Virus record (IMG/VR): IMGVR_UViG_2724678985_000012
Source of the DNA: a virus
Taxonomy: Duplodnaviria; Heunggongvirae; Uroviricota; Caudoviricetes
Direction: 5' to 3' (one strand)
Length of the DNA: 64,000 nucleotides
Part shown: in pieces, positions 20,807 through 64,000 of the stretch
Layout: each line of letters starts with the position of its first letter
How positions within the stretch are numbered: position 1 is the stretch's first letter
Notes under the pieces: model-generated
Database searches by the model: none
Seen by the model: only the letters and a program-made list of their open reading frames with translations
Told to the model about the DNA's origin: nothing
Position numbers and translations under genes: made by a program

Positions 20807-22015
20807 ATGAGTCAACACACTGATACTTCTAATCTGGAAATTATCTCGACAGCAATTGAAACGCTGCGCACACAAATCGCTCTTATACAGAAACGGAATC
20901 CGGGTGATGACCTGTCAAAGCGACTGCACGAGAGTGTCATTGCCACTACAGATAACCTGGTGGCGGAAATCAACAAGCTGCTTGATGATGGGGCAGTTGA
21001 TTACAATAAGCTGGTGGATCAGTTTGAGGAATACCAACAAGCCGTTAATGATGGCTTGATCCGTTTTTCACAAGTCACAGGCGTATCAGCGACAGTTGAA
21101 AGCCTGGGTGATGCAGTTAATCAATTTGCCGCGAATATGCGTAATGAGATCGGCAATCTGGAAGCGCGTCTTGAACAGGCAAATACACTGCGTAAATCTG
21201 CCGAAGCCGATTTGAACCGTTACAAAAAAGACTATCCGCCCAGCCTGACAAAGCGGCTGGATGTTGCGGAGAAGGATAACCGCGCGCTGAAAAGAGAGCG
21301 CCGGGAACTAAAAGAGCGTTTAACCAAGCTCAATCAGCAATGCATTGATTATCAAGGCGAAGGCGTCACACTGCGTAAAAAGTTGGCTACAGCGCAGAGC
21401 ATTATCGAAACATTAAAGCGAGAGTGCTCACAGCTTGGTCACGATCTGAACCGTGCTTGTGGCATGGGACAAAGACCAGAGACATTTCCACTCATGTATG
21501 ATGGAAGGGATGCCATTGCCTACATCCATGAGTATCCGCACGGCCTGGTTGCGGAAACAGGGCAGCGTGGCGAAGCACTGTTGACGGCTAATTACCATCA
21601 ACAAATCAGAACCAATCGCCTGTTAACGATGGATGTGATCCCATCGGTATGGGGAACGCCGCTTTACTATCGCCTGCCGGGCTTCGAAAAGGACTGGAAT
21701 ACCGACATAGACGAATGTCTCGCAGATAAAATTATGGCGTACCTGGAGACGGATTTTCCGCGCTTATATCGCCGGATTATGGACTCTAAGGATGCGCCAA
21801 TCGATGAATTAAAAATGCGTCCGGAGACGCTGGAGGCAATCAAGCAGACGGAGTTTGATACTGTATTCAGTGTGGCCTGCATTCCAAGCTGTTTCCATGA
21901 AAGCATCCCGTTCATGCAAGGAGATCGTCGTCAGGAAATCATTGACGCTTGCCGGGTATGGGCGAACGAATGGGATAAGAAGAATGGGGGTGTAGAAGAT
22001 CTTTATGGGAAATAA
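20807..22015 (+). CDS. hypothetical coiled-coil protein
   Basis: about 402 aa; N-terminal coiled coil, C-terminal globular domain; start chosen at ATG 20807. Confidence 0.4.
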   Translation: MSQHTDTSNLEIISTAIETLRTQIALIQKRNPGDDLSKRLHESVIATTDNLVAEINKLLDDGAVDYNKLVDQFEEYQQAVNDGLIRFSQVTGVSATVESLGDAVNQFAANMRNEIGNLEARLEQANTLRKSAEADLNRYKKDYPPSLTKRLDVAEKDNRALKRERRELKERLTKLNQQCIDYQGEGVTLRKKLATAQSIIETLKRECSQLGHDLNRACGMGQRPETFPLMYDGRDAIAYIHEYPHGLVAETGQRGEALLTANYHQQIRTNRLLTMDVIPSVWGTPLYYRLPGFEKDWNTDIDECLADKIMAYLETDFPRLYRRIMDSKDAPIDELKMRPETLEAIKQTEFDTVFSVACIPSCFHESIPFMQGDRRQEIIDACRVWANEWDKKNGGVEDLYGK

Positions 22016-22032
22016 TGTGTTAGAAATCTAAA
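22016..22032 (-). promoter_or_regulatory. C1-operator-like motif site 5
   Basis: GTGTTAGAAATCTAAAATC. Confidence 0.45.
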
Positions 22033-23249
22033 ATCACAATTCGAATGTATTGATTGTGGAGATAACTTAACATAGAATTTTCCTTGCTGGTGGGCAGTAC
22101 CCACGTTTCGCTTGCTGGGCTTGATAGTCACTTATTGGTTATTGTTCGCCCACCAGCATTTAACAAATTAAAGTGTTAGAAAAGTATGGTAATGCAAGAG
22201 CACGCTTTGGCACCGTGCAGGCCAAAGTTCAGCAGGTTTAGTGCGGAAAGTGGTTTCAGAGAGAGCACTTTGCGGAGTAAACGACAATACATGTTGAGCC
22301 ACGGAAGGTCTTTTTAAGGTGTTCATTGATGATGGTCCGGCAGAGAGTAACGGTACATGCTGCATCTAATCATCAATGCACATCTTCAACATTAAGGAGG
22401 CATAGGGATTTTTGTGGCGGTTACCTTTTGCCCTGAGTCTCCTTAATGTTGCGGTAATGCACCTATGCGGATGTGGCCTTGCATTGTGTCTTGAAAGAAT
22501 GGGGTAAGGCCGGGGATATCCCCAGGGGGAGGCACCCCCGCTGCAACGAACAGCCACAGACGGCAGTCGAGTGATGGAAACGTGTAAAGACTTTAAACCT
22601 CGTTACGGCTGGCGTGGCAAACGCGACAACCGAGACAGAGCGGTGACGGGCGGAGAGAGTGCCGCATCAAGAAAGAAGCCGACTTGTGATCCCTTTCTGC
22701 GGGCATTTGAAAGTGAATCCAGCTCAGGCAGTCGGCTTCTTTCTTGTGTGAGATGTAGCGTATTTGCCCATCTTCGGGTGGGCTTTTTTAGGGTTTTCGT
22801 CATGGTTAGCGACTTTGCGGCGGTTTAGAAACCGACCATTAAAGTAAATGCAAACGATGATCTGATGATGGTAGCGGCCTAAGAAGCCAGACGCCACGGG
22901 GTATGAGTCGTCCCCCGTCAAAAAATCGACCGCAGAGTGTCCCCGTCTGTGTATTAGGGAACGGGGAGGCATAACAGGCAAGGGCGCTGGTGTGATTAAC
23001 CAGATGAATGAGAAGGGTCAGGTCTTTCTGGTCAGCGCCCTTACCTGTTACGTCCCTCCCGCGTAACAGCCATTGATTAATGGCTTTCTGGGATAACATC
23101 CTACTACGGGTATATCCCGTCATGCTGAAGGCGCTAATCACGCTGGAAGCCAGGGTTGTGCATCCCCTGTTACCGAATTGCAGCCAGGGCGCGGTGCGCC
23201 GAAAAGCATACGGAGGTGGAAGCCCTCGCCGGAGACGTACCCGGCAAGT
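22033..23249 (+). other. about 1.2-kb GC-rich non-coding leader of the tRNA array with many stable hairpins; candidate structured ncRNA
   Basis: no convincing ORF (only short low-complexity frames); multiple perfect 10-14 bp stems and terminator-like gcccatcttcgggtgggctttttt near 22763. Confidence 0.4.
22171..22187 (-). promoter_or_regulatory. C1-operator-like motif site 6
   Basis: AAGTGTTAGAAAAGTATGG. Confidence 0.45.
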
Positions 23250-23326
23250 GATGGTGTAGCTCAGTAGGATAGAGCAGCAGCCTTCTAAGCTGTCGGTCGG
23301 TGGTTCGAATCCACCCACCATCGCCA
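23250..23326 (+). tRNA. tRNA-Arg (anticodon UCU)
   Basis: 77 nt cloverleaf: acceptor GATGGTG/CACCATC, anticodon loop CTTCTAA, T-loop TTCGAAT, encoded CCA. Confidence 0.85.
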
Positions 23327-23331
23327 ATTTA

Positions 23332-23418
23332 GGGGAGTTAGTCCGTAGGGGTAGCGGGGTAGACTGTAAATCTACTGTCATTGCGACTCGGGTGGTTCGA
23401 CTCCATCACTCCCCACCA
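23332..23418 (+). tRNA. tRNA-Tyr (anticodon GUA), long variable arm
   Basis: 87 nt; anticodon stem-loop GTAGA-CTGTAAA-TCTAC as in E. coli tRNA-Tyr; acceptor GGGGAGT/ACTCCCC; CCA. Confidence 0.75.
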
Positions 23419-23422
23419 AATT

Positions 23423-23498
23423 GCCGGTTTAGCTCAGTTGGTAGAGCGCCTGCCTTGTAAGCAGGATGTCAGCGGTTCGAGTCCGTTAACCGGCACCA
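23423..23498 (+). tRNA. tRNA-Thr (anticodon UGU)
   Basis: 76 nt; acceptor GCCGGTT/AACCGGC; anticodon loop CTTGTAA; CCA. Confidence 0.85.
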
Positions 23499-23704
23499 AC
23501 ACAACAGGTAAGGGCATTCTCCCTTATGGGGCTTGGCTTAAATGCATCGAGTGCTCTTACCGTTGTGATGAAGTGCAGCTCTTTGAAGCAACCAGAAGAT
23601 AAGCATCTGGCTTCACAACATAAACCGCAGGAACGACCAATAAACGGTAGTCCGTATGGAGAACACCCCGTTGAGGAAGAGGCCTGGCCGGAACCGTAAC
23701 CGGC

Positions 23705-23803
23705 ACCACAACGTTGAGAACACTGGCGTAACGGGGTCATATCCCAATCTATGAATAAATGTTGCGTTGCAGCGTGACAACCAGTGTTCTCAACATTGTG
23801 GTG
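23705..23803. repeat. long inverted repeat (20-bp arms) of the tRNA-island leader/trailer repeat family
   Basis: CACCACAACGTTGAGAACACTGG ... CCAGTGTTCTCAACATTGTGGTG; related copies at 23498-23518, 23562-23592, 23881-23902, 24080-24111. Confidence 0.7.
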
Positions 23804-23900
23804 AATGCACAGGCTGATGTGCCGCAACTACAGTAGTGCGCGCTTTGCGGGGCTTGCTACAACCCTGTGTCGGAGTTCAGCACCGACCATCACAATCACT

Positions 23901-23987
23901 GGAGAGTAGGGAGCATGGTGCTCAAGCGGTCTTGAAAACCGTCCCATTGCGCAAGCGATGATGGTTCGATTCCATTACTCTCCGCCA
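23901..23987 (+). tRNA. tRNA-Ser (anticodon UGA), class II with long variable arm
   Basis: 87 nt; acceptor GGAGAGT/ACTCTCC; anticodon stem-loop GCGGT-CTTGAAA-ACCGT; CCA. Confidence 0.7.
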
Positions 23988-24250
23988 GTGCAACGTTAAG
24001 AGTATTTGGCTAATTAAGCGAATGCCGGAAGCAGAACCGGATCACCAAATGCGTACAGGCGTCATCGCCGCCCAGCCAGCCAAGTGCTCTTACCATTGCG
24101 GTGAATGCGGCTAAGCGCACGCGGAACAGTTAAAACAATCCTCCTTAGTGGTTAAGTCAAACATCCCGGCGTTAATTGTTAACTGGTTAACGTCACCTGG
24201 AGGCACCAGGCACCGCAGCTTTTTTATTCGGTAAATAATGGAGTGAGAGG

Positions 24251-25294
24251 ATGCAGAACAATCCGAACAAATGTCGAACGCTATGGGTGCGGTTATATAT
24301 TTATGTCGTCCTCTGTTTGATTGTGTCACTGGTTCTGTATGTTTGGCTTTTGCCAAATATGATCTCATCTGACAGCACAATACTTGTATTGTTGGGAGTC
24401 CTTCTCGCGCTCATTTACCCGGCTTTTGCAGTAGTCTTTTTTCGTGAAAAAACCAGGAAATTGATTAATGAAAAAACGTTGATTAGTGCAGCGATTATTT
24501 TTGGTTCTTTATGTCTGACCGGATGCGATCGGGTAGAGCCAGGTAACGTAGGGATCAAAGTAAATAAGCTGGGGGATGATAAAGGTATCGGTGAAGTAGT
24601 TGGCGTTGGTCGCTACTGGACAGGCTTGAATACTGAAGTTTATATCTTCCCGACCTTTAAGCAAATGAAGACATACGATGAGCCGTTCAGCTTCCAGATG
24701 AGCGACGGAACAACCATTGGTTACCACATCGGCGTAGCCTACAAGGTTGATCCAGCAAAAGTCACAACGGTATTTCAGACCTATCGCAAAGGTGTAGATG
24801 ATATTACTGATACCGATCTACGCCAGAAGGTTGCAGATGCTCTGAACCGGTTAGCCAGCAAAATGACCACCGACAAATTTATCGACGGTGGCAAATCTGA
24901 ATTGCTTGATGCAGCCCTTAAAGACATTCAGGAAGAAATGACGCCCATCGGTATTCAGGTAATGAGCCTCTCATATGTGGGCAAGCCGGAGTACCCGCCA
25001 ACCGTTATCGACAGCATTAATGCCAAAGTCACGGCGAACCAGAAAACTCTGCAACGCGAGCAGGAAGTCAAGCAACGCGAAGCAGAAGCCAACATGCTGC
25101 GCGCAGAAGCTGCTGGACAGGCCGATGCCATTCGCACAAAAGCCCAGGCTGAAGCTGATGCCATTCGTTTACGCGGTGAGGCTCTGCGCCAGAACCCCGG
25201 CGTTATGGAGTTGGAAGCGATCAACAAATGGAACGGAACGCTACCGCAGTATATGACCAGTAATACCGCTGTTCCGTTTGTTCCGGTGAAATAA
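24251..25294 (+). CDS. SPFH (band-7/prohibitin)-domain membrane protein
   Basis: N-terminal TM/lipobox-like LTGC; SPFH-like core then Ala/Glu-rich coiled coil; true start likely downstream (24358 or later). Confidence 0.55.
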   Translation: MQNNPNKCRTLWVRLYIYVVLCLIVSLVLYVWLLPNMISSDSTILVLLGVLLALIYPAFAVVFFREKTRKLINEKTLISAAIIFGSLCLTGCDRVEPGNVGIKVNKLGDDKGIGEVVGVGRYWTGLNTEVYIFPTFKQMKTYDEPFSFQMSDGTTIGYHIGVAYKVDPAKVTTVFQTYRKGVDDITDTDLRQKVADALNRLASKMTTDKFIDGGKSELLDAALKDIQEEMTPIGIQVMSLSYVGKPEYPPTVIDSINAKVTANQKTLQREQEVKQREAEANMLRAEAAGQADAIRTKAQAEADAIRLRGEALRQNPGVMELEAINKWNGTLPQYMTSNTAVPFVPVK

Positions 25295-25448
25295 CCAAAT
25301 AGATAACATGATGGAATTTTGGACGTTTGCCGACAAGAACCCTTGGTGGACATTTTTATTTCTGCTGGTGGTTGCATATGGGGTCGAGCAAGCAGCAAAA
25401 GCCTTACGCGGTCCTGGCAAAAAGCGTAAGCGGAATTAACAGTAATCT

Positions 25449-25524
25449 GGCCCTTTAGCTCAGTGGTTAGAGCTGGCGACTCATAATCGCACGGTCACCG
25501 GTTCAAGTCCGGTAGGGGCCACCA
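25449..25524 (+). tRNA. tRNA-Ile2 (anticodon CAU, ileX-like; Met not excluded)
   Basis: 76 nt; near-identical architecture to E. coli ileX; anticodon loop CTCATAA; CCA. Confidence 0.75.
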
Positions 25525-25978
25525 TATTTGGTTGTAACACGGCGTCTGGCACATGCGTCGTTAGCGGTCTGGTGACGTTAAAGGGGTATCTTTGACTCTT
25601 GCTCAGGCAAACGGACCAGGTAGCCGGAATGTGCAAGCCCCGATAACAGTGGCGGACCGAGGACTCACCATCCTGGCGATTCGGTGTGACAGCCGGAAGA
25701 GCACGGCGCACAACAGGAAAAGGCGTTTAATTAGCGTGAGCGCCGTTTCCGTTGTGGTAATTGCGGCTATGCGCTCGTGACGAAGCCATTTTTATTCACT
25801 ACGTTCTGATAAGTGACGTCGCCAGGAGTGGCTAACCTGGCAGGTGGAGGCACCACCGCCACAACTCCTTTCAATTCATCATATAGCCGCTCAGGCTGTA
25901 CCCCTTAATTAATACGAATTTACGACATCACTACCGGCACTTCCGGGGGATAGTCGCGCGTGTAAAAAAGGAGACGTT

Positions 25979-26554
25979 ATGTTAATGGCGAACGATAACG
26001 CATATGCAGAAGAAGATCTCATTTTGAGTGACTTCATAGGGAAGCGGGAACGCTGGACCCAAAAGCGAGAGGAACTTTACGCCTCATTAGTTCGCAAAGG
26101 CGTCAATATCGAAACCGCACAGAGCGGCGATATGACAGTGGTAAGCGTTGGATTGCACGGTGTAAGCGTGTCAGCAATCAATCATGAGCCATACGTTGCG
26201 TTATCCGAGTCAATGGTAAGGTTAGTTAAGTTCCTGAAGTACACAGAAGCGAATAATGTAATCATTGGCAAAAAGAATATCCCTTTTTCCTCGGCTTTTT
26301 ACTGGATGATGAAAGGGCTTGATGCCCGGCGGACATCATGGCCTAAAGGGAGCTATATATCGATGTTCCGTGGCAGCATTGGCAGCAAAGAAAAGCTCTT
26401 CGAATTCTTGCCGGAAGAGGCATTCGATATTGTGGAAGGGTGCGATGTGATGGTGATGCCTCGCCTGGTAATGATGAATGGGGATTTACAGGCGCAGACA
26501 GACTGGTTTGCAACTGGTGTGGATATTATCGCGACTGACTGGGAGGCTTTCTGA
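25979..26554 (+). CDS. two-domain protein with C-terminal DUF2829-like domain
   Basis: 191 aa; C-terminal MKGLDARRTSWPKGSYI ... DIIATDWEAF matches DUF2829 signature. Confidence 0.45.
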   Translation: MLMANDNAYAEEDLILSDFIGKRERWTQKREELYASLVRKGVNIETAQSGDMTVVSVGLHGVSVSAINHEPYVALSESMVRLVKFLKYTEANNVIIGKKNIPFSSAFYWMMKGLDARRTSWPKGSYISMFRGSIGSKEKLFEFLPEEAFDIVEGCDVMVMPRLVMMNGDLQAQTDWFATGVDIIATDWEAF

Positions 26555-26946
26555 TGTACGGGACTACCAAATTAAGCACTCAACAGGCCACCAATATGGA
26601 GTGGTCTATCGCTAACTGTAAGATCGTGTCATGCAATGCCACGCGTACTGATGTGGGCCATAAAAGCACTATAACAGGCTATCTAGTAATGACCACCAGG
26701 GGGATGAGGGTTAGATTTCGCTGGAAAGCAGAGCAAGTAACGCCATTCAGAGAGCCATCAATGCCGCTGCAGGTTGAGCAGGATTATCTATGTTTACCAG
26801 AAATAGATGGAGGAATGCTGGTGGAGTCTGATGGTAGTAAGGCTGATTTTGAAGCCAATTTGAAGCTGGCACAGGCCGTAATCAATAGTTATCGCGGAAA
26901 GTGGATCGCAAAAGTGAAACATGTTGTTCGTTTGTCTCGCTGGTAG
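26554..26946 (+). CDS. hypothetical protein
   Basis: 130 aa; ATG overlaps upstream stop. Confidence 0.35.
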   Translation: MYGTTKLSTQQATNMEWSIANCKIVSCNATRTDVGHKSTITGYLVMTTRGMRVRFRWKAEQVTPFREPSMPLQVEQDYLCLPEIDGGMLVESDGSKADFEANLKLAQAVINSYRGKWIAKVKHVVRLSRW

Positions 26947-26961
26947 CGTTAGGTATTTAAT

Positions 26962-26980
26962 ATTAATTTTCTAATATAAT
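26962..26980 (+). promoter_or_regulatory. C1-operator-like motif site 7 (variant TTTTCTAATATAAT)
   Basis: upstream of Lpa-like gene, as P1 lpa is C1-controlled. Confidence 0.4.
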
Positions 26981-27054
26981 CATCTTTTTACCAGTCTATA
27001 CAGTTTTAACATTCTCATTATCATCCCCTCGGTCATTTCCTGCCCGGGGGATTA

Positions 27055-55646: not shown

Positions 55647-56006
55647 TTAAACACCAACCAGACTTTCCAGTGGAATACCAAACTGGGCATGTAAACGACG
55701 AATCATAGGTAACGTCAAATTTCGTGTCCCATTAAGCACTTCGTAAACACGGTTTGACTTACCAATTGCCGGTTCCAGATCCTTCACGGTCAGTCCTTGC
55801 TGTTCCATACGGAATTTAATGGCCTCAATAGGTGATGGTGGCTCAATTGGGTAATGTTTTTTCTCGTACTCCTCAATGAGAAGACACATAACCTCAAAGA
55901 AATCGCCTTCCGGTGTGTTCATTTCCGGTTCGTTATCGAACATCGGTTCGACCGCACGCAGTGCGGCCTCATAATCTTGTTCTGTACGGATAGGTTTAAT
56001 GTTCAT
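55647..56006 (-). CDS. HigA-type (ygjM-like) HTH antitoxin-like protein, orphan
   Basis: 119 aa; C-terminal IGKSNRVYEVLNGTRNLTLPMIRRLHAQFGI HTH; flanked by terminators. Confidence 0.55.
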   Translation of the reverse strand: MNIKPIRTEQDYEAALRAVEPMFDNEPEMNTPEGDFFEVMCLLIEEYEKKHYPIEPPSPIEAIKFRMEQQGLTVKDLEPAIGKSNRVYEVLNGTRNLTLPMIRRLHAQFGIPLESLVGV

Positions 56007-56062
56007 TAATTACAAAGGAAAGCCCACTTGCTAAGTGGGCTTTTTGTATGTGTTTTACTATA

Positions 56063-56401
56063 TCAGGCTGCTTTTTTATTCAGGTTCCGCTGAGAAATAA
56101 ATTTTTCAGCAGTATTGATACGACTTAACTCTTCCTGAACGCGCATATCATTTTCGACTTCCCACAGTTCTACTGCGGTCTGAAGATTAATCCAAAAATC
56201 TACAGAAGTATCGAATGCTTTTGCCAGGCGATATGCCATATCCATCGTTAGCTTACGATTATTATTAACAAGAGCACTTACGGTGTTACGATGAACATGA
56301 AGTATTTCTGCTAACTCGTTGATCTTCAGCTCTAACGGCTCCAGGTATTCGTACAGCAGGATATCACCTACGGTCGTCGGTTTTCTGGTTGCCTGTTTCA
56401 T
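56063..56401 (-). CDS. higA: HigA antitoxin (N-terminal HTH family)
   Basis: 112 aa; VGDILLYEYLEPLELKINELAEILHVHRNTVSALVN...FWINLQ. Confidence 0.75.
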   Translation of the reverse strand: MKQATRKPTTVGDILLYEYLEPLELKINELAEILHVHRNTVSALVNNNRKLTMDMAYRLAKAFDTSVDFWINLQTAVELWEVENDMRVQEELSRINTAEKFISQRNLNKKAA

Positions 56402-56471
56402 TTTTTGCCCTTACTAGCGTGCGTATTAAGTGGACTCTGGTCAGAACCCGGTCCGTAACCGGGTATCTGTT

Positions 56472-56774
56472 TTAGTATTTGTGAGGGTCGAGATACAAGT
56501 CCTCGGCCTTTCCGTTAACCCACTTAAAAATTAACCTATATTGCTTATTCACCCTTACTGATGAATAGCCATTTAGCTTCCCTGACAGTTCCTCATACCG
56601 ATTACCTGGTGGTGATCTTAAATCCTTACAGGTAGTTGCGGCATTGATAATGTCCAACTTCCGTGACAATGTCATATGAATATCAGGAGGTATCTTTCTA
56701 TGTGGTGTTGAAAATTCAAAAAAATCATCAAGCCACGCATCCCTGAAATCCTTTATGTTAATTTTTTTGGTCAT
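56472..56774 (-). CDS. higB: HigB toxin (RelE/ParE superfamily)
   Basis: 100 aa; DLRSPPGNRYEELSG...VRVNKQYRLIFKW motif; upstream of higA. Confidence 0.75.
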   Translation of the reverse strand: MTKKINIKDFRDAWLDDFFEFSTPHRKIPPDIHMTLSRKLDIINAATTCKDLRSPPGNRYEELSGKLNGYSSVRVNKQYRLIFKWVNGKAEDLYLDPHKY

Positions 56775-56936
56775 TAGTCATTTGATCCTCCGTGATGATT
56801 ACCGAATGCCATAACTATAGCGCACCGTTGCACTGTGCGCAAGTGCATTTTATGAATTCCCCCTCCTTCATCCAAAATCACAATCTCCCGAAAATCTTCC
56901 TTTCGATACCTGACAGATCGACCTTTGAGGATGCTT

Positions 56937-57728
56937 ATGGGCCGTTTTGACGAATGGTTTGCTGACGATGCAAACCTGGCAAGTAAGGAGTCAGAACATG
57001 ACAGCACGCAGAGAGAAACGCCAGCGCCGATTGAAGCGAATGCAGGAGGCGCGCCGGAACATGGCAATACCGGTTCGGATTCATTCAGCATTCTGGAAGA
57101 GCAACCCGCCGCCAAAGCTGATAGCCATGATAATTTTGCTGATAGCAACGGTGGCCTTACTCCGGATGCTGGCGAATCAGATATAGCCATACTTCCATCT
57201 TCCCTGGCTGGCAGAGAACCGACTCCACAGTTAAAAGCACGCTATAACGGGCATAAAGCCTTTAACGACCAAATCCGCGCAGACTGGATGCTGATTATTG
57301 AATCCAGCCCAGACGCGTTTCAGGCTCTCTTATATCGACCAGATGTTGGCACATATGGGGTAGTCAGCGACGAAACAGGAGAAGAGTCATTCACTGAACT
57401 GGATAACAACCAACGCGAACTGACTTACCAGGAACCTGAAATCGTTTATGTGCTGGATAACCCTGACGGGCGTGACTCTTTCCATGCGATTGACGCAGAC
57501 GGTGAGCAGGATGGCTTAACCGATGATGTTCTGATTCTGCGTATTGCAGCAAATAACGTCCCCGTCGGCTCAATTCTTGAATGGAATGAAGAGATGGTAA
57601 ACGGCGTAGCCCGCCGCTGGTGGTACGTGCACCGTATTTTTAGCTACGGCACACAGCATGTTGGTTCGCTTTACTACTGCATACCTGCCAGAAATTTTGA
57701 TACGACTCAAAACGGAGTGATCGAATGA
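56937..57728 (+). CDS. hypothetical protein (acidic; first gene of tail/baseplate-proximal operon)
   Basis: ATG 56937 with GAGGA SD. Confidence 0.4.
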   Translation: MGRFDEWFADDANLASKESEHDSTQRETPAPIEANAGGAPEHGNTGSDSFSILEEQPAAKADSHDNFADSNGGLTPDAGESDIAILPSSLAGREPTPQLKARYNGHKAFNDQIRADWMLIIESSPDAFQALLYRPDVGTYGVVSDETGEESFTELDNNQRELTYQEPEIVYVLDNPDGRDSFHAIDADGEQDGLTDDVLILRIAANNVPVGSILEWNEEMVNGVARRWWYVHRIFSYGTQHVGSLYYCIPARNFDTTQNGVIE

Positions 57729-58492
57729 CTTCAAATAAAACCCTCCTGGCACGAACAGGTGAATGGCAAACCTCACGCACAGGAAAATTCCAGACCACGG
57801 GCTTTGAAAACGTGGATAACGCGTTTGCTACGCTAATCAGCAATATCTTTTCTGATATCTTACTGGTGGCCCCCGCGCCGGAAGAAAAACGCTTTGCGTC
57901 ATTCCTGAATCGTCCACCAGCAGAGCGTGTCTATGTGGCCCGTTTCGACAATGCGATCGAGTTTCTTAAAGCAGTTCGTCGCGCAAATGCCGGGCAAGGG
58001 AGAAAACCTGAAAACCAGAACATTAACCGGGATGCTCTCCCCCTGGTCAATATCTCACGCACTATGGATATCAATTATATCAACGATGATCAGCAGATTG
58101 ACCGCAAAAAAGTAGCCAGTTTTTGCGAACCGGATACCGGAATGCCTTTAGCAGAACTGGAATACACCCAGGCCATTCTGACGTATGACGTTACGTTAAT
58201 GGCAACTGATAAAGCGACCATGAGTCTGATGTGTAATTCGCTGGGCGCACGGCTTCGCCTGATGACAGGTACACAATTTGAAGCAACCACTCACCTTGTT
58301 CGTGTCCCGGTCCCGCTGATTTGCTCGATACAGGATGCCAAAGAAGTCGGCTTTACGGATGTTTCAGCACCAATTGGAGAAGAGCGTATTTATGCCACAC
58401 AAGCGCCGATAAGTGTGATTGCAGACGTGATCACAGCATGGGAGTTGGACGCAAAACGTATTATTACCGAAACCTCGATATCTATGGGGTGA
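57725..58492 (+). CDS. hypothetical protein
   Basis: 255 aa; ATGA overlap. Confidence 0.4.
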   Translation: MTSNKTLLARTGEWQTSRTGKFQTTGFENVDNAFATLISNIFSDILLVAPAPEEKRFASFLNRPPAERVYVARFDNAIEFLKAVRRANAGQGRKPENQNINRDALPLVNISRTMDINYINDDQQIDRKKVASFCEPDTGMPLAELEYTQAILTYDVTLMATDKATMSLMCNSLGARLRLMTGTQFEATTHLVRVPVPLICSIQDAKEVGFTDVSAPIGEERIYATQAPISVIADVITAWELDAKRIITETSISMG

Positions 58493-58495
58493 TAA

Positions 58496-59476
58496 GTGGC
58501 CCAGGAGTTACAACAATATTTTCTACAGTCAGTGCTCATTAACGATAACAAAGTGCCACGAGACTGGATTTTTACCGCAGTATATGTAGAAAAAACCAGC
58601 CTCAAAGCCCCTTTGCTAAAACTGGAAATTCATGACGCTACCGGCACCGTAATTGATGACTGGAAAGCCAAATACGGTGCATCGCTGGTGGCTGAAATGG
58701 GCGATCCAAACGGTAATGCAGGCACTTTTAAAACAGATTTCTTTGTTACGTCTGCAATGCTGGCTGGTGATGTTGTTACCGTTATTGCTGTCAGTGAAGA
58801 CGTGCGCAGGTTTAAGATCCCCTCCCCGCGCACAAATTTACATACCAACAAAACACCAGACGCTATATTCAAGGCATATTCCGGCAAACTTAAAATTACC
58901 AGCAGCGTGCTAAAACGCGCAGTTACATATCATCTGAATGCTGGTGACAAACCGTCAAAAATGCTTTCGGAGATAGCGCGAGACAAAGGTGCATTGTGTT
59001 GGGTATGTCGGGGGGAATTTAACTTTTACACCCTGGCTGATCTGATGAAGCAAACGCCATCATTTACCTACGAGGGGAATAACCCTAAAGCAGAATACAC
59101 TTTGTCAAAAATGCGCCTACTCCAACAGGAACATGCGACAACAGCAAAGAATCAATATCGTTTTGTTGGGTATTCCATGACCGATGGCTACGTCGAATAT
59201 GGCGATAGCTCACTCCCAGTGCGTTATATATCCGACTCTGATATGGAAACTCTTCGCAATATGCAGCTGTCTCTCGTCCCCAAAATGGATATAGAAGTCG
59301 CAGGCAATCCTGATATAAAACCGGGGATGGTAATAGAGATTATCGTATACCGCTATGACCAGGAAAACCGCATTGATGAATCAATGCCCCGTAAGCTGAT
59401 AGTAAAAAATGTTGCGCACTTTGAGGACCGCGTAGGCTACACAACACGAATGATATTGGGAGTGCCTAACAAATGA
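58496..59476 (+). CDS. putative baseplate hub-like protein (by position upstream of spike)
   Basis: 326 aa; GTG start; overlaps spike gene start. Confidence 0.3.
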   Translation: MAQELQQYFLQSVLINDNKVPRDWIFTAVYVEKTSLKAPLLKLEIHDATGTVIDDWKAKYGASLVAEMGDPNGNAGTFKTDFFVTSAMLAGDVVTVIAVSEDVRRFKIPSPRTNLHTNKTPDAIFKAYSGKLKITSSVLKRAVTYHLNAGDKPSKMLSEIARDKGALCWVCRGEFNFYTLADLMKQTPSFTYEGNNPKAEYTLSKMRLLQQEHATTAKNQYRFVGYSMTDGYVEYGDSSLPVRYISDSDMETLRNMQLSLVPKMDIEVAGNPDIKPGMVIEIIVYRYDQENRIDESMPRKLIVKNVAHFEDRVGYTTRMILGVPNK

Positions 59477-60126
59477 AGCGTAGAGCGCAAATTGTTGGAA
59501 CTGTGCACCCGGCAGGGCTTATGCGTGCTCAAGTCCGTGTTTTACCTGACTGGAATGGCGTTCCTGATGACGATCTACCCTGGGCGGAATACCTGTTACC
59601 CATCGGAAACGCTTTTGTACCCACAGTCAAAGGTGACCTGGTCTGGGTAGAGTTTCCTTATTTAGATGTTAACGGTCGAATAGACACCAGACGCCCAATG
59701 ATAGTTGGTGCCGCTCAGGATGCACCGGGAGGAATTCCAAACGTTGCACCAGAAGCATCTGGCAAAGGCAACGGCTGGACGCCGCCGGAAGTAGATGGAG
59801 CACCTCCCCGCCCCCAAATCTCAGCAACGAAAGACTTCGTTATTCACCGCAACAATATTCTTGAAGTACGAACTGCTGGTGGCGGCTATGAAATTGCCAA
59901 TACGGCAGCAGGCTCAAGGATTGGCATGAATGAGTCCGGGCAGATATATATCATTGGTCCGGCTGATGTAATCGTGAATGCAGGAGGGAGTGTTAACGTC
60001 AAATCAGCCAACAACATCAATGTTAAAGGGGAAAATATTGCTGTCACCGCTAACGGAGACATAGCTTTCAAGGCAGGAGGAACCTTTCAGGCCACTGCTA
60101 GCAACTTCGATTTCAAGAAAGGATAG
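59473..60126 (+). CDS. baseplate spike protein (gpV / Mu gp45-like)
   Basis: 217 aa; N-terminal OB-fold pattern RAQVRVLPDW...GDLVWVEF; C-terminal beta-helix-like repeats. Confidence 0.5.
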   Translation: MKRRAQIVGTVHPAGLMRAQVRVLPDWNGVPDDDLPWAEYLLPIGNAFVPTVKGDLVWVEFPYLDVNGRIDTRRPMIVGAAQDAPGGIPNVAPEASGKGNGWTPPEVDGAPPRPQISATKDFVIHRNNILEVRTAGGGYEIANTAAGSRIGMNESGQIYIIGPADVIVNAGGSVNVKSANNINVKGENIAVTANGDIAFKAGGTFQATASNFDFKKG

Positions 60127-60157
60127 AAAATGCACCCATTTGTGTTAGATAATTAAT

Positions 60158-60175
60158 ATGTATTTTCTAACACAA
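60158..60175 (+). promoter_or_regulatory. C1-operator-like motif site 13, embedded in 14-bp inverted repeat
   Basis: CCATTTGTGTTAGA...TCTAACACAAATGG around TATTTTCTAACAC, upstream of rdgC-like gene. Confidence 0.5.
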
Positions 60176-60185
60176 ATGGTGAGAC

Positions 60186-61091
60186 ATGAGATCAGTCGCT
60201 TTCAAAAATATCTTCATCTATCGTCTTTCACGCGAAGTTAGCTGGGATACTGCAGAAGTAAATGCAGCCCTTAGCAAGTTTGTGTTTACCCCATGCGGTT
60301 CTCAGGATATGGCTAAAGCTGGTTGGACCCCCGTTCTTGGCGACAACCTCACCCATGAATACCAAGGTTTTCTTCTGATACAGCATAAACGAGAGGAAAA
60401 AATCCTACCCTCTCAAGTGCTCAAAGAAGAGTTACAGAAAAAAATCCTGACACTTGAAGAAGAGCAAGACAGAAAGCTGAAGAAGACTGAAAAAGATTCG
60501 CTGAAGGATGAAGTGCTTCACTCTCTGCTTCCTCGTGCTTTCACGAGAAAATCAGTCGCTAAAATCCTGATAGACCGAAGCAATCATCTGGTTTTTGTCG
60601 AGGCCAGCAGTGCTAAAAAAGCAGAGGATCAGCTGGCTTTGTTACGGAAATCGCTTGGCAGCTTGCCCGTTGTCCCCTTCTCTCCGAAAGACCCATTAGA
60701 ACTGACCATCACTGGCTGGATTAAAAATGGCTTCCCGAACGGTTTCCGTGCCGGTGAGGAAGCGACCTTAAAAGCATTGCTTGATGATGGCGGCGCGGTC
60801 CGCTGCAAAAAAGTGGACCTGCTATCCGACGAGATCATGAGTCATATAGAAGCTGGTAAGGTTGCAACCACAGTTGCGGTTAACTGGCAAGACCGTGCAT
60901 TTTTCAGACTGAATGACGATATGAGTATCAAGGCTTTGTCGTTCAGCGACGAATTGTACGACCAGAACGACGATATTGATCGAGAGGATGTTGCGCAACG
61001 ATTTGACGCTGACTTTATCCTGTTTACTGCTGAATTATCCGCGATGTTCACTTCGCTGGTGGAGGCCGTTGGTGGTGAAGCAGAACGTTAA
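60186..61091 (+). CDS. rdgC: RdgC-like recombination-associated protein
   Basis: 301 aa; long collinear similarity to E. coli RdgC ([49 protein letters not shown]). Confidence 0.8.
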
Positions 61092-61104
61092 CAATAGACC
61101 TCTG

Positions 61105-61755
61105 ATGGTGAGTCTTTGTGATTTCACGGGGAAAATGGTCGCCCCCTGGCTGGAGCATGGTATAGATGCTGTTATCGTCGATCCACAACACGCAGAGACC
61201 AGAGATGAGCTGATGCAATCAGGCGCAGTTCTGACACGTATCAGTGCGATTATCGATAGTGATGAAGTTTATGCTTTTCTCCGAAATAATTTACAACGTA
61301 TTGTGTTTTTAGCTGGTTTTCCGCCGTGCACGGACCTTGCTGTTTCCGGTGCGCGCTGGTTTGCGCATAAGGCTGACAAAGATCCGTTTTTCCAGTTCAA
61401 AGCGATGCAGGTCGTCTGGCAGTGTTACGATATTGCAAAGATGATTGGTTGCCCGTACATGATTGAAAACCCGGTCAGCCAAATATCGACATTCTGGCGT
61501 AAACCTGATCACATCTTCCATCCTTACCACTTCACTGCATATTGCAAGGAAGACAATTACACCAAAAAAACATGCCTCTGGAGCGGGCAAGGCTTTGTCA
61601 TGCCTGATGCCCTAATGGACGAATCATTAGGCAAGCCAGATAACAGAATCCATACCGCGCCACCTGGACCTGAAAGGGCTAATTTTCGAAGTGCTACTCC
61701 GCATGGATTCGCAAAGGCAGTTTTCGAAGCGAATAAGGGGGTGCTCTATGAGTAA
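61105..61755 (+). CDS. small C5-cytosine-methyltransferase-like protein
   Basis: about 216 aa; motif I-like LCDFTG, PC motif GFPPCTDL, ENV-like MIENPVS; no obvious target-recognition domain. Confidence 0.35.
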   Translation: MVSLCDFTGKMVAPWLEHGIDAVIVDPQHAETRDELMQSGAVLTRISAIIDSDEVYAFLRNNLQRIVFLAGFPPCTDLAVSGARWFAHKADKDPFFQFKAMQVVWQCYDIAKMIGCPYMIENPVSQISTFWRKPDHIFHPYHFTAYCKEDNYTKKTCLWSGQGFVMPDALMDESLGKPDNRIHTAPPGPERANFRSATPHGFAKAVFEANKGVLYE

Positions 61756-62653
61756 ATCTATAGCAAGCATAGCCATAAAAAAACAGGATACGATGGCTGA
61801 AATTAGCTATATGCGCACCATTCGGACTCCGGATGAATATGAGCGCCCGATCTTCAAATGGGTAGGCGGTAAATTCTCAGAGTTGCCTACAGTGCTTGAG
61901 CATCTACCACACGGCAAGCGGTTAATAGAACCATTCGTTGGTGGCGGTTCCGTATTTACAAATGCAGGATTTCACCACAACCTGCTTAATGATATTAACG
62001 GTGACCTGATTAACTTCTATCAGACATTGCAGCGAGAAGGACATTCGCTCGTCACGCTGTCATATAGTTTTTTCCAAAATTACAACAACGCTGACGCTTA
62101 CCTCGAAGTGCGTGAGGCATTTAACAGAGGAAAGTATGACCAGCTACATCATGCTGCCGCCTTTTTGTACCTTAATCGGCACTGTTTTAATGGCGTAACG
62201 CGGTACAACCAAAATGGCGAGTTCAACGTGGGGTATGGCAAATACAAAGCGCCCTACTTCCCACATGCAGAGATGGAGGCATTTTTGGCTGATGACGTAC
62301 TCAAAAACACGTCCTTTGTATCAGGTGACTTTGCTGGCGTCATCGAGGCGGCTGGTGAAGGCGATGTGATTTTTTGCGATCCGCCGTATGAACCGCTGCC
62401 GGATACAGAAGGGTTTACCAGTTATTCAGGAAATAGCTTCCGTTTCGACGAACAGAAACGGCTGGTATCTCTATTGGTGGAAGCCCACCAGCGCGGCGCT
62501 AAGGTAGTGATAACAAATAGTGGTGCGCCAAACATCCGTGAACTATATGAAGGAAACGGGTTTAAAGTACATCATATGGCAGCCAGACGGTCGGTTTCCT
62601 GCAAGGCGTCAACACGTGTAGTTGCTAACGATATAATTGCGATAATGAAGTAA
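61748..62653 (+). CDS. Dam-family N6-adenine DNA methyltransferase
   Basis: IFKWVGGK, EPFVGGGSVF and DPPY motifs; collinear with E. coli Dam; ATG 61748 with AAGGGGG SD. Confidence 0.85.
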   Translation: MSKSIASIAIKKQDTMAEISYMRTIRTPDEYERPIFKWVGGKFSELPTVLEHLPHGKRLIEPFVGGGSVFTNAGFHHNLLNDINGDLINFYQTLQREGHSLVTLSYSFFQNYNNADAYLEVREAFNRGKYDQLHHAAAFLYLNRHCFNGVTRYNQNGEFNVGYGKYKAPYFPHAEMEAFLADDVLKNTSFVSGDFAGVIEAAGEGDVIFCDPPYEPLPDTEGFTSYSGNSFRFDEQKRLVSLLVEAHQRGAKVVITNSGAPNIRELYEGNGFKVHHMAARRSVSCKASTRVVANDIIAIMK

Positions 62654-62684
62654 AAAACGCCGCAGTAGCGGCGTTTACTTTTTT
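62654..62684. terminator. bidirectional rho-independent terminator between dam-like gene and glnS
   Basis: aaacgccgc-agta-gcggcgttt with T-runs on both strands. Confidence 0.8.
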
Positions 62685-62701
62685 ATGTGGCGAAATACCT
62701 A

Positions 62702-64000
62702 TTAACCTAACTTCGCCCAGGTATCACGCAGCCCAACGGTGCGGTTAAATACCGGTTTTTCCGCCGTGGAATGGCGGCTGTCGAGGCAGAAATAACCTTC
62801 ACGCTCAAACTGGAATGCTTTACCCGCTACCGCTTCTTTCAGCGACGGTTCAGCAAAGCCCTGTTTGATCACCAGCGATTCCGGGTTAATCACCGACAGG
62901 AAATCATCCGCAGCACCTGGGTTCGGTACACTGAACAGACGGTCGTACAGGCGAATTTCAACCGGCAGCGCATGGGCCGCGCTTACCCAGTGGATAACGC
63001 CTTTCACTTTACGACCATCTGCCGGATCTTTGCTTAAAGTATCGGCATCGTAGGTACAGAAGATGGTGGTGATATTGCCTTCGGCATCTTTCTCCACGCG
63101 TTCAGCCTTAATGACGTAAGCATTACGCAGACGCACTTCTTTACCCAGCACCAGACGTTTGTACTGCTTGTTAGCTTCTTCGCGGAAATCGGCGCGGTCG
63201 ATCCAAATCTCACCGCTAAACGGCACCTGACGGCTACCCATTTCCGGTTTGTTTGGATGGTTCGGCATGGTGACCATTTCGCCTTCGCCCTGGTAGTTTT
63301 CGATAACCAGTTTCACCGGATCGATAACCGCCATTGCGCGCGGGGCATTTTCGTTGAGATCTTCACGGATGCAGGATTCCAGCGACGCCATCTCAATGGT
63401 GTTGTCCTGCTTGGTCACGCCGATGCGTTTGCAGAACTCACGAATAGAAGCAGCAGTGTAACCACGACGACGCAGACCGGAAATGGTCGGCATACGCGGG
63501 TCATCCCAGCCTTCAACGTGCTTGTCGGTTACCAGCTGGTTCAGCTTACGCTTGGACATCACGGTGTATTCCAGATTCAGGCGCGAGAATTCGTACTGGC
63601 GCGGATGAACAGGAATGGTGATGTTGTCCAGTACCCAGTCATACAGACGACGGTTGTCCTGGAACTCAAGCGTACACAGAGAGTGCGTAATACCTTCCAG
63701 CGCATCGCTGATGCAGTGGGTGAAGTCGTACATCGGGTAGATGCACCACTTGTTGCCAGTCTGGTGGTGTTCAGCAAACTTAATACGGTACAGCACCGGG
63801 TCGCGCATCACGATAAACGGCGAAGCCATGTCGATTTTCGCACGCAGGCAGGCTTTACCTTCTTCAAAACCACCGGCACGCATTTTTTCGAACAGCGCCA
63901 GGTTCTCTTCAACGCTGCGGTCGCGGTACGGGCTGTTTTTACCCGGCTGCGTCAGGGTGCCGCGGTATTCGCGGATCTGTTCCGGCGTCAGTTCGTCAAC
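62702..64000 (-). CDS. glnS: glutaminyl-tRNA synthetase, 3' part (gene continues beyond window end)
   Basis: translation matches E. coli GlnRS from residue about 120 to C-terminus; E. coli-like GC and codon usage; ends ...TWAKLG. Confidence 0.9.

Follow-up and report, generated by a model that had tools for sequence, protein, structure and literature searches.

The 64,000-nucleotide (nt) stretch analyzed here (the window), from IMG/VR virus record IMGVR_UViG_2724678985_000012, belongs to a D6-like phage-plasmid of the P1 family and carries at 24251-25294 (+) an open reading frame (ORF) of 347 amino acids (aa) that appears, from the sequence, to be two phage genes joined in one frame by the loss of a single A (A7 to A6). 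The upstream gene would encode a small membrane protein with two transmembrane (TM) segments, and the downstream gene a lipoprotein with an SPFH (Band 7) domain. Taken as a whole, we consider it fairly probable that a mobile module made of these two genes occupies the tci slot, i.e., the site held by tciA, tciB and tciC in phages D6 and P1, that the two genes were fused by the A loss, that the product forms a periplasmic assembly at the inner membrane, and that the small tciC gene that follows lies outside the module.

The composite nature of the ORF is seen in two adjacent family matches, in the order small protein to lipoprotein: PHROG 1130 ("membrane protein") covers residues 12-75 (E=7.7e-14), and PHROG 200 ("lipoprotein") covers residues 42-346 (E=5.9e-115). 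In the P1-like phage Ro157c2YLVW, which shares the sequence of this cassette with the window, the gene for a 78-aa membrane protein and the start of that for a 275-aa lipoprotein overlap, and alignment of the two junctions (TTAATGAAAAAAACG in Ro157c2YLVW versus TTAATGAAAAAACG in the window) indicates that the window dropped one A from the run of seven. The ancestral lipoprotein ATG at 24468 is out of frame in the window and reads M-K-K-R-stop, so that the lipoprotein would be made only as the C-terminal portion of the fused product. A separate start for the lipoprotein within the window was considered and is unlikely, as no Shine-Dalgarno sequence lies at the proper distance from the in-frame TTG codons at 24461 and 24479 either. 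Another conceivable route to fusion in the A7 allele, programmed -1 frameshifting on A_AAA_AAC, was rejected; the SPFH frame is +1 relative to that of the small gene (5176 and 5393 in locus L001), and a -1 shift therefore misses it.

The A7 form is by far the common one. It was found in all 55 unbiased loci (44 IMG/VR contigs with the junction, Ro157c2YLVW, and ten loci found through the downstream small ORF), the A6 form being restricted to the window and two further loci (L050 and L051), and the standalone 78-aa protein (P0148) occurs on at least 1000 contigs. Ten plasmids that are 99.9% identical to the window over 1261 bases differ from it solely by a 1-nt gap at the A tract. These figures, along with the absence of the exact 347-aa protein from a collection of 15 billion proteins, would fit an A6 tract that is a sequencing or assembly error in a phage that truly has two normal overlapping genes. 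We regard such an error as improbable for two reasons. First, only two indels in total separate the window from a near-identical plasmid across ~50 kb, and one of them is a frameshift on the plasmid side; thus, the window assembly does not look prone to homopolymer errors. That second indel, at window position ~34286, is an A5 tract facing A4 in NZ_AP022217.1, whose DUF2829 gene is annotated as a frameshifted pseudogene. Second, independent assemblies show the same fused LINEKTLIS (A6) junction, namely an NCBI assembly (a 94-kb D6-like contig) and several Logan assemblies, and this junction spans three different allele backgrounds. Other fused forms also occur: one of 348 aa reads NEKKT, which is consistent with A9, and one of 363 aa has an insertion. 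On this comparison of sequences, the deletion in the A tract is very probably real.

The two parts of the fused ORF correspond to a widespread phage module in which a 55-78-aa ORF with two TM segments ends in a stop codon that overlaps or abuts the lipoprotein start. The pair was found in the P2-like phage P88, in the lambdoid phage phiP27, in prophages of Salmonella, Yersinia, Kluyvera, Buttiauxella, Pantoea, Lelliottia and Chimaeribacter, and in the virulent N4-like Stenotrophomonas phage Paxi; lambdoid/Shiga toxin (Stx) and P1-like phages likewise keep the small-protein/SPFH pair. In Paxi (L080, 2281-3292), the two-TM ORF and the SPFH lipoprotein gene come directly after a tRNA cluster, as they do in the window, and an annotated terminator follows them. 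The sequence of a relative matches 763 phage records, including those of virulent Pseudomonas, Stenotrophomonas, Erwinia and Staphylococcus phages, and among 5426 complete E. coli genomes the cassette is present in 192. Across 19 diverse small proteins, the turn between the two helices carries the motif P-x-[LM]-x-S, in which Ser39 is invariant and Pro35 is present in at least 90%; in the window the motif is P35-x-M-I-S39 and lies in a short loop between strongly hydrophobic helices (19-mers) at residues 15-33 and 44-62. The 78-, 67- and 62-aa partners gave no significant match in Pfam or NCBIfam, and hence contain no NfeD/OB-fold domain.

The two genes have also been joined in nature elsewhere. 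An exhaustive HMMER search of the family returned 217 clusters at E<1e-30, and 23 of the 112 representatives with a locatable core motif are natural single-chain fusions, laid out as a two-TM module, a linker, a hydrophobic stretch and the SPFH domain. A lipobox-type Cys is retained at the junction in at least 17 of these 23 fusions (21 by eye), and many of them have no internal Met. The Roseobacter phage DSS3P8 (L081, 2423-3529) carries the same module as gp123 and gp122, which share one frame and are separated only by a stop codon; the SPFH part there is anchored by a plain TM segment and lacks a lipobox Cys, and the "transposase" annotation finds no support in its SPFH homology. Repeated fusion is taken as classical evidence of joint action by two proteins, and this would therefore apply to the two-TM and SPFH proteins. 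Likewise, the natural fusions show that the architecture created by the frameshift in the window is viable elsewhere. Thus, the small membrane partner of the SPFH protein is most plausibly the upstream two-TM protein, which in the window forms the N-terminus of the 347-aa ORF. An earlier note on this DNA had proposed that the SPFH protein works with a small membrane peptide, as such proteins commonly do; the general idea of a small partner holds, but the partner would be encoded upstream of the SPFH gene rather than downstream.

A real deletion could still be an inactivating one, leaving a misfolded or mislocalized fused chain in a cassette that is decaying cargo. The rarity of the fused allele is in line with this possibility, as is the disruption of other copies by IS1; moreover, the slot itself is dispensable, since tciABC scored as non-essential in a CRISPR interference screen (PMC10695390) and is one of eight regions that vary greatly among P1-like phage-plasmids, about half of one subgroup having lost it (PMC9603915). 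Against it, the frame is open through all 347 codons, the predicted topology keeps the SPFH domain in the periplasm (see below), and stable natural fusions, in which the modules come in the same order and the junction Cys is kept, make up ~20% of the distant family clusters. Inactivation therefore seems to us rather unlikely, if somewhat less so than a sequencing error. Two chromosomal copies, in Shigella flexneri and E. coli (L053 and L054), have no two-TM ORF because an IS1 end (at ~2600-2950) sits directly upstream of the SPFH gene.

The SPFH assignment rests on sequence and predicted structure alike. The Band_7 profile of Pfam (PF01145) matches the ORF at E=1.9e-30 (106.7 bits versus a cutoff of 23.6), and the AlphaFold2 model of the 347-aa monomer (mean predicted local distance difference test, pLDDT, of 73.5) comprises helices at residues 6-37, 42-64 and 75-88, an SPFH domain at 91-247 with pLDDT values of 75-93, and one 65-residue helix that follows it. 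An SPFH alpha/beta fold followed by a long helix is the arrangement of the cage-forming members of the superfamily. In Foldseek, the model aligns over 260-300 columns with erlin1/2, HflK/C, prohibitin, stomatin, flotillin, QmcA and the major vault protein, with E values of ~1e-13 for erlin, HflK/C and prohibitin, and BFVD holds many uncharacterized viral Band 7 proteins; by sequence, the closest PDB entry is HflK, with an E value of only 2e-4. The SPFH-like core, lipobox and coiled-coil helix described in the earlier note, which had named a Band_7 search as the check, are thus borne out by Pfam, AlphaFold2 and Foldseek. The N-terminal TM/lipobox region that it described is also present, but it had missed that almost all relatives encode the TM region in a gene of its own.

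The lipoprotein of the relatives starts with MKKTLISAAII(L/F)GSLCLTGC|DRVEPGN. L(T/V)GC stands at residue 20-21 in every standalone enterobacterial homologue, and C-D-R-V-E-P-G-N is present in all enterobacterial homologues. In the window, L-T-G-C92 likewise closes a hydrophobic segment and agrees with the lipobox pattern [LVI][ASTVI][GAS]C, and the signal peptide has become internal, as 70 residues with two TM helices precede it; the natural fusions also retain the Cys. By direct reading of the sequence, the N-terminus contains three Lys/Arg, the 34-43 loop none and the 63-76 loop five, the latter lying in REKTRKLINEK just ahead of the third hydrophobic segment. Under the positive-inside rule, on which topology predictions of this kind are based, this distribution would put the SPFH domain, together with Cys92, on the periplasmic side. 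In E. coli lipoproteins, Asp at +2 is the signal for retention in the inner membrane.

The surroundings of the ORF indicate how the module may have arrived. Positions 14000-36000 of the window are 98.3% identical to phage D6 across 74% of positions, and the window is at least 98.6% identical over ~50 kb to the E. coli plasmid pWP8-S17-ESBL-05_2. The alignment to D6 is near-identical through 24217, diverges, and becomes identical again at the tRNA gene at 25449. At the same site, D6 and P1 carry tciA (TerB-like), tciB (DUF3927) and tciC, followed by a tRNA gene with anticodon CAU. It follows that the cassette took the place of tciA-tciB, and the window is best read, on these alignments, as a D6-like phage-plasmid in which tciA-tciB gave way to a mobile two-gene phage module while tciC was retained. 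In D6-like elements, the tciABC genes have been viewed as moron cargo of the tRNA region (PMC6799933).

The tRNA island noted earlier is real, with five tRNA genes flanking the region. Its set in the window (Arg(TCT), Tyr, Thr, Ser(TGA) and the CAU tRNA) differs from those of D6 (Asn, Thr, Ser) and P1 (Asn, Thr, CAU), and the island itself thus appears to be mosaic. The CAU tRNA was called Met by ARAGORN, an identical gene is tRNA-Ile in RefSeq (PGAP), and it corresponds to trnI in the P1 gene table (PMC10695390). An Rfam scan of 22000-27000 returned tRNAs only, so that no RNA family overlaps the small ORF, and consensus scans of 23200-26100 gave no promoter-like site and no more terminator-like sites than shuffled sequence. 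Just past the CAU tRNA, a 191-aa ORF at 25979-26554 (+) contains a Tad2-like (Thoeris anti-defense 2) domain (Pfam PF11195, E=1.1e-9), and an identical plasmid gene is named "Thoeris anti-defense Tad2 family protein" in RefSeq; an anti-defense gene would therefore adjoin the variable tci slot. Farther away, positions 55825-64000 align to 58653-50478 of plasmid NZ_AP022217.1, and from this alignment the end of the window (~62700-64000) should reach the plasmid-borne gene for glutamine--tRNA ligase (glnS). This gene is a noted cargo of D6-like elements.

The downstream peptide that the earlier note had taken as the possible partner is a TciC homologue. A small ORF does start at 25308 (+) as described, but it has 43 rather than 44 codons and ends at 25439, three bases before the given end of 25442; its basic tail is present, whereas its hydrophobic stretch (WWTFLFLLVVAYGV, best 17-mer Kyte-Doolittle value of 1.48) is only borderline as a TM helix. 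D6 has at the same position an unannotated 37-aa ORF (MMDFWTYIDKNPGWSLLFLLVIVYGVEQVAKNLRRRK), the start of which overlaps the tciB stop codon and to which the 43-aa ORF is 61% identical. P1 TciC (35 aa) starts with MGFWDFADKHP, and the three proteins share the N-terminus MM(E/D/G)FW..DK.P and the location directly upstream of the CAU tRNA. A match to PHROG 23152 (E=0.002) is weak when taken alone. Twenty codons differ between the 43-aa ORF and that of D6, and as 10 of these changes are synonymous and the 10 non-synonymous ones are mostly conservative, purifying selection seems to act on this frame. The earlier note had made conservation of the small ORF a check on its proposal, and the ORF does behave as a conserved coding gene. 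By its sequence and position, it is a genuine tciC gene, probably a leftover of the displaced tciABC operon that lies outside the SPFH module.

This assignment bears on the model put forward in the earlier note, i.e., a single SPFH membrane protein partnered by the downstream peptide and, for instance, tuning FtsH, which we now deem very unlikely. The two ORFs are on the same strand and only 13 nt apart, and the exact 43-aa allele, known from 24 contigs, was found only downstream of the cassette in the 10 of 10 places examined. However, D6, P1 and P7 have tciC behind tciA-tciB and carry no SPFH gene there; a 127-nt deletion removes the small ORF in 34 of 40 cassette loci, leaving its last ~25 bases; and no conserved small ORF lies downstream in the other SPFH-carrying phages and prophages. 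In addition, the 43-aa ORF of the window has no Shine-Dalgarno sequence, which, with the 13-nt gap after the SPFH stop codon, makes its expression there uncertain. A partnership between the SPFH protein and the 43-aa peptide thus finds no support.

The upstream partner suggests a different arrangement. In the split state, gene 1 would encode a two-TM hairpin protein of ~60-78 aa, and gene 2, translationally coupled to it, a lipoprotein of ~275 aa with its SPFH domain and long helix in the periplasm. The fused chain of the window would insert with its N-terminus in the cytoplasm, TM1 running outward, TM2 inward and the former signal peptide outward again as TM3. Cys92 would then be at the periplasmic face, where it is probably lipidated and may be cut by signal peptidase II, and the +2 Asp would hold the product in the inner membrane. 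On the model of the SPFH assemblies that have been solved, the SPFH domain and the long helix may build an oligomeric ring or cage at the periplasmic surface of the inner membrane, beneath which the two-TM partner would lie embedded. SPFH proteins are scaffolds that fence off membrane patches, and recent cryo-electron microscopy has revealed cages of HflK/C, prohibitin, stomatin, erlin, flotillin and QmcA. Our best guess at the role, again by analogy, is control of the inner membrane during infection, either superinfection exclusion or envelope stabilization, with a membrane patch fenced off. As virulent phages also carry the family, this role is probably exerted in infection and would not be purely one of lysogenic conversion.

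The chief functional rival is an HflK/C-like effect on FtsH: the SPFH lipoprotein would mimic HflK/C by binding, or competing for, the periplasmic side of FtsH, shifting the proteolysis of phage regulators and thereby the choice between lysis and lysogeny or the maintenance of the plasmid-prophage. The predicted topology of the lipoprotein, periplasmic and anchored in the inner membrane, is that of HflK/C, HflK is the best PDB sequence match mentioned above, and the top structural matches include HflK/C, prohibitin and erlin. Nevertheless, the NCBIfam equivalog models score far below their cutoffs (23.5 bits versus 134.4 for hflC and 22.5 versus 159.4 for hflK), the structural scores do not set the protein apart from stomatin or flotillin, and the family is also found in virulent phages, which have no lysogeny decision to make. 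We therefore judge the mimicry of HflK/C to be unlikely. Far less likely still is a lipoprotein of lysogenic conversion or virulence that acts on the animal host, as might be proposed by analogy with PM0222, a prophage-encoded HflK/C-like protein of Pasteurella multocida for which TLR1/2 activation and a contribution to virulence were reported (PMC9872710). The likeness to PM0222 is one of description and not of sequence comparison, and the cassette is indeed found on Stx phages and on plasmids of pathogenic E. coli; yet the family also occurs in phages of environmental bacteria, and the +2 Asp predicts inner-membrane retention instead of surface exposure.

Several points weigh against the fused module as an inner-membrane assembly active in infection. 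The presence of the family in virulent as well as temperate phages counts against a purely lysogenic-conversion role without naming a function. The searchable literature (SPFH with prophage, phage infection, Stx or defense) yielded no experiment on the family, its single hit being the PM0222 paper, and in PADLOC-DB 2.0 the fused ORF, the lipoprotein and the 43-aa ORF had no match, the 78-aa protein only a chance-level one (E=0.023). The C-terminus and TM region of the AlphaFold2 model are of low confidence, and processing of an internal lipobox behind two TM helices is not an established event. Finally, the fused allele is rare, being found in none of the 55 unbiased loci, which could mean that it is mildly deleterious or very recent, and a residual single sequencing error at the A tract of the window could still lie behind it. 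A bolder and rather doubtful extension of the model is that the two-TM protein and the SPFH lipoprotein are halves of one machine, which phages would encode in two genes or as one precursor. In the fused form, the internal lipobox, which follows a polytopic pro-region, would be the site cut by signal peptidase II, and the cut would free a membrane peptide and a lipid-anchored SPFH subunit; the two might co-assemble into a periplasmic inner-membrane cage that keeps out the DNA of competing phages or controls the envelope in some other way during infection. Neither an internally processed lipoprotein precursor nor a viral periplasmic cage of lipid-anchored SPFH proteins is described in the searchable literature.

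Databases already list the SPFH gene as such. The new findings are the frameshift fusion, the identity of the true partner, the assignment of TciC, and the alternation of split and fused forms with an internal lipobox in a large uncharacterized phage family. The module can be seen as a phage version of SPFH systems, very widespread, with a predicted periplasmic lipid anchor and a conserved two-TM partner of its own that is not an NfeD protein. Its recurrent split and fused states offer direct genetic evidence for joint action of the two proteins, as well as a natural test of lipobox processing within a polytopic chain. As for annotation, the 347-aa ORF should be read as a frameshift fusion, and the 78-aa partner and TciC are usually unannotated in RefSeq plasmids; in NZ_AP022217.1 (L077, 1501-2762), for example, PGAP annotates only the 275-aa SPFH gene and neither the 78-aa partner nor the 43-aa TciC gene. 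The labels "serine protease" and "transposase" given to homologues were not supported by the domain searches run. The coordinates of all features are collected in the table.

Table. Features of the cassette and its flanks in the window (positions in the 64,000-nt stretch)
Feature	Position	Strand	Basis or remark
tRNA genes Arg, Tyr, Thr	23250-23498		flank the region
tRNA gene Ser	23901-23987		flanks the region
Replaced segment (cassette)	24218..25448	+	D6 alignment; sits where D6 and P1 have tciA-tciB-tciC
Two-TM small membrane protein module (residues 1-70)	24251..24460	+	PHROG 1130; standalone 78-aa gene in relatives
Former lipoprotein signal peptide, now internal third hydrophobic segment (residues 71-92)	24461..24526	+	
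Fusion point: ancestral lipoprotein ATG (24468-24470) and A6 tract (24471-24476; A7 in relatives)	24468..24476	+	
Lipobox L-T-G-C92, followed by Asp at +2	24515-24526	+	
SPFH/Band 7 domain (residues 94-280)	24530..25090	+	Pfam PF01145, AlphaFold2, Foldseek
Single long Ala/Glu-rich helix (residues 250-314), putative SPFH oligomerization or cage-wall element	24998..25192	+	AlphaFold2, Foldseek
TciC-family small ORF, 43 aa (MMEFWTFADKNP), with short hydrophobic stretch and basic tail	25308..25439 (including stop)	+	
tRNA gene, anticodon CAU	25449-25524	+	right cassette boundary; 9 bases past the small ORF

Among known systems, the closest are direct homologues, namely the PHROG 200 and PHROG 1130 proteins of P88 (gp12/gp11), phiP27 (L05), Stx phages ("serine protease"), RCS47 and Ro157c2YLVW, whose SPFH parts are 73-96% identical to that of the window. 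In those phages the two genes are separate, whereas here they are fused by the A7-to-A6 change, sit in a D6-like backbone and are followed by tciC. The tciABC locus of P1 and D6 (TerB-like TciA, DUF3927 TciB, and TciC) is the same locus, bounded by the same upstream sequence and the CAU tRNA and encoding a homologue of the 43-aa protein; unlike P1 and D6, the window lacks tciA and tciB, and its TciC has 43 aa as compared with 37 in D6 and 35 in P1.

HflK/HflC resemble the predicted product in combining a membrane-anchored SPFH domain with a long helix at the periplasmic side of the inner membrane. They differ from it in having one N-terminal TM helix, where a lipobox and lipid anchor are predicted here (with three TM segments in the window), and in forming a K/C pair, where a single SPFH gene is present here, with scores far under the hflK and hflC family cutoffs. 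The SPFH-NfeD operons (QmcA-YbbJ, YqiK-YqiJ and archaeal stomatin-NfeD) also pair an SPFH gene with the co-transcribed gene of a small membrane protein, and natural fusions of the two partners are known there too. Here, in contrast, the partner has no NfeD/OB-fold domain or Pfam match and precedes the SPFH gene, and the SPFH domain is predicted to be periplasmic, whereas that of QmcA is cytoplasmic. Lastly, the superinfection-exclusion proteins Imm and Sp of phage T4 combine a small two-TM inner-membrane protein with a membrane-anchored periplasmic protein. The likeness of the module to this pair is one of form only, and no homology is to be expected.

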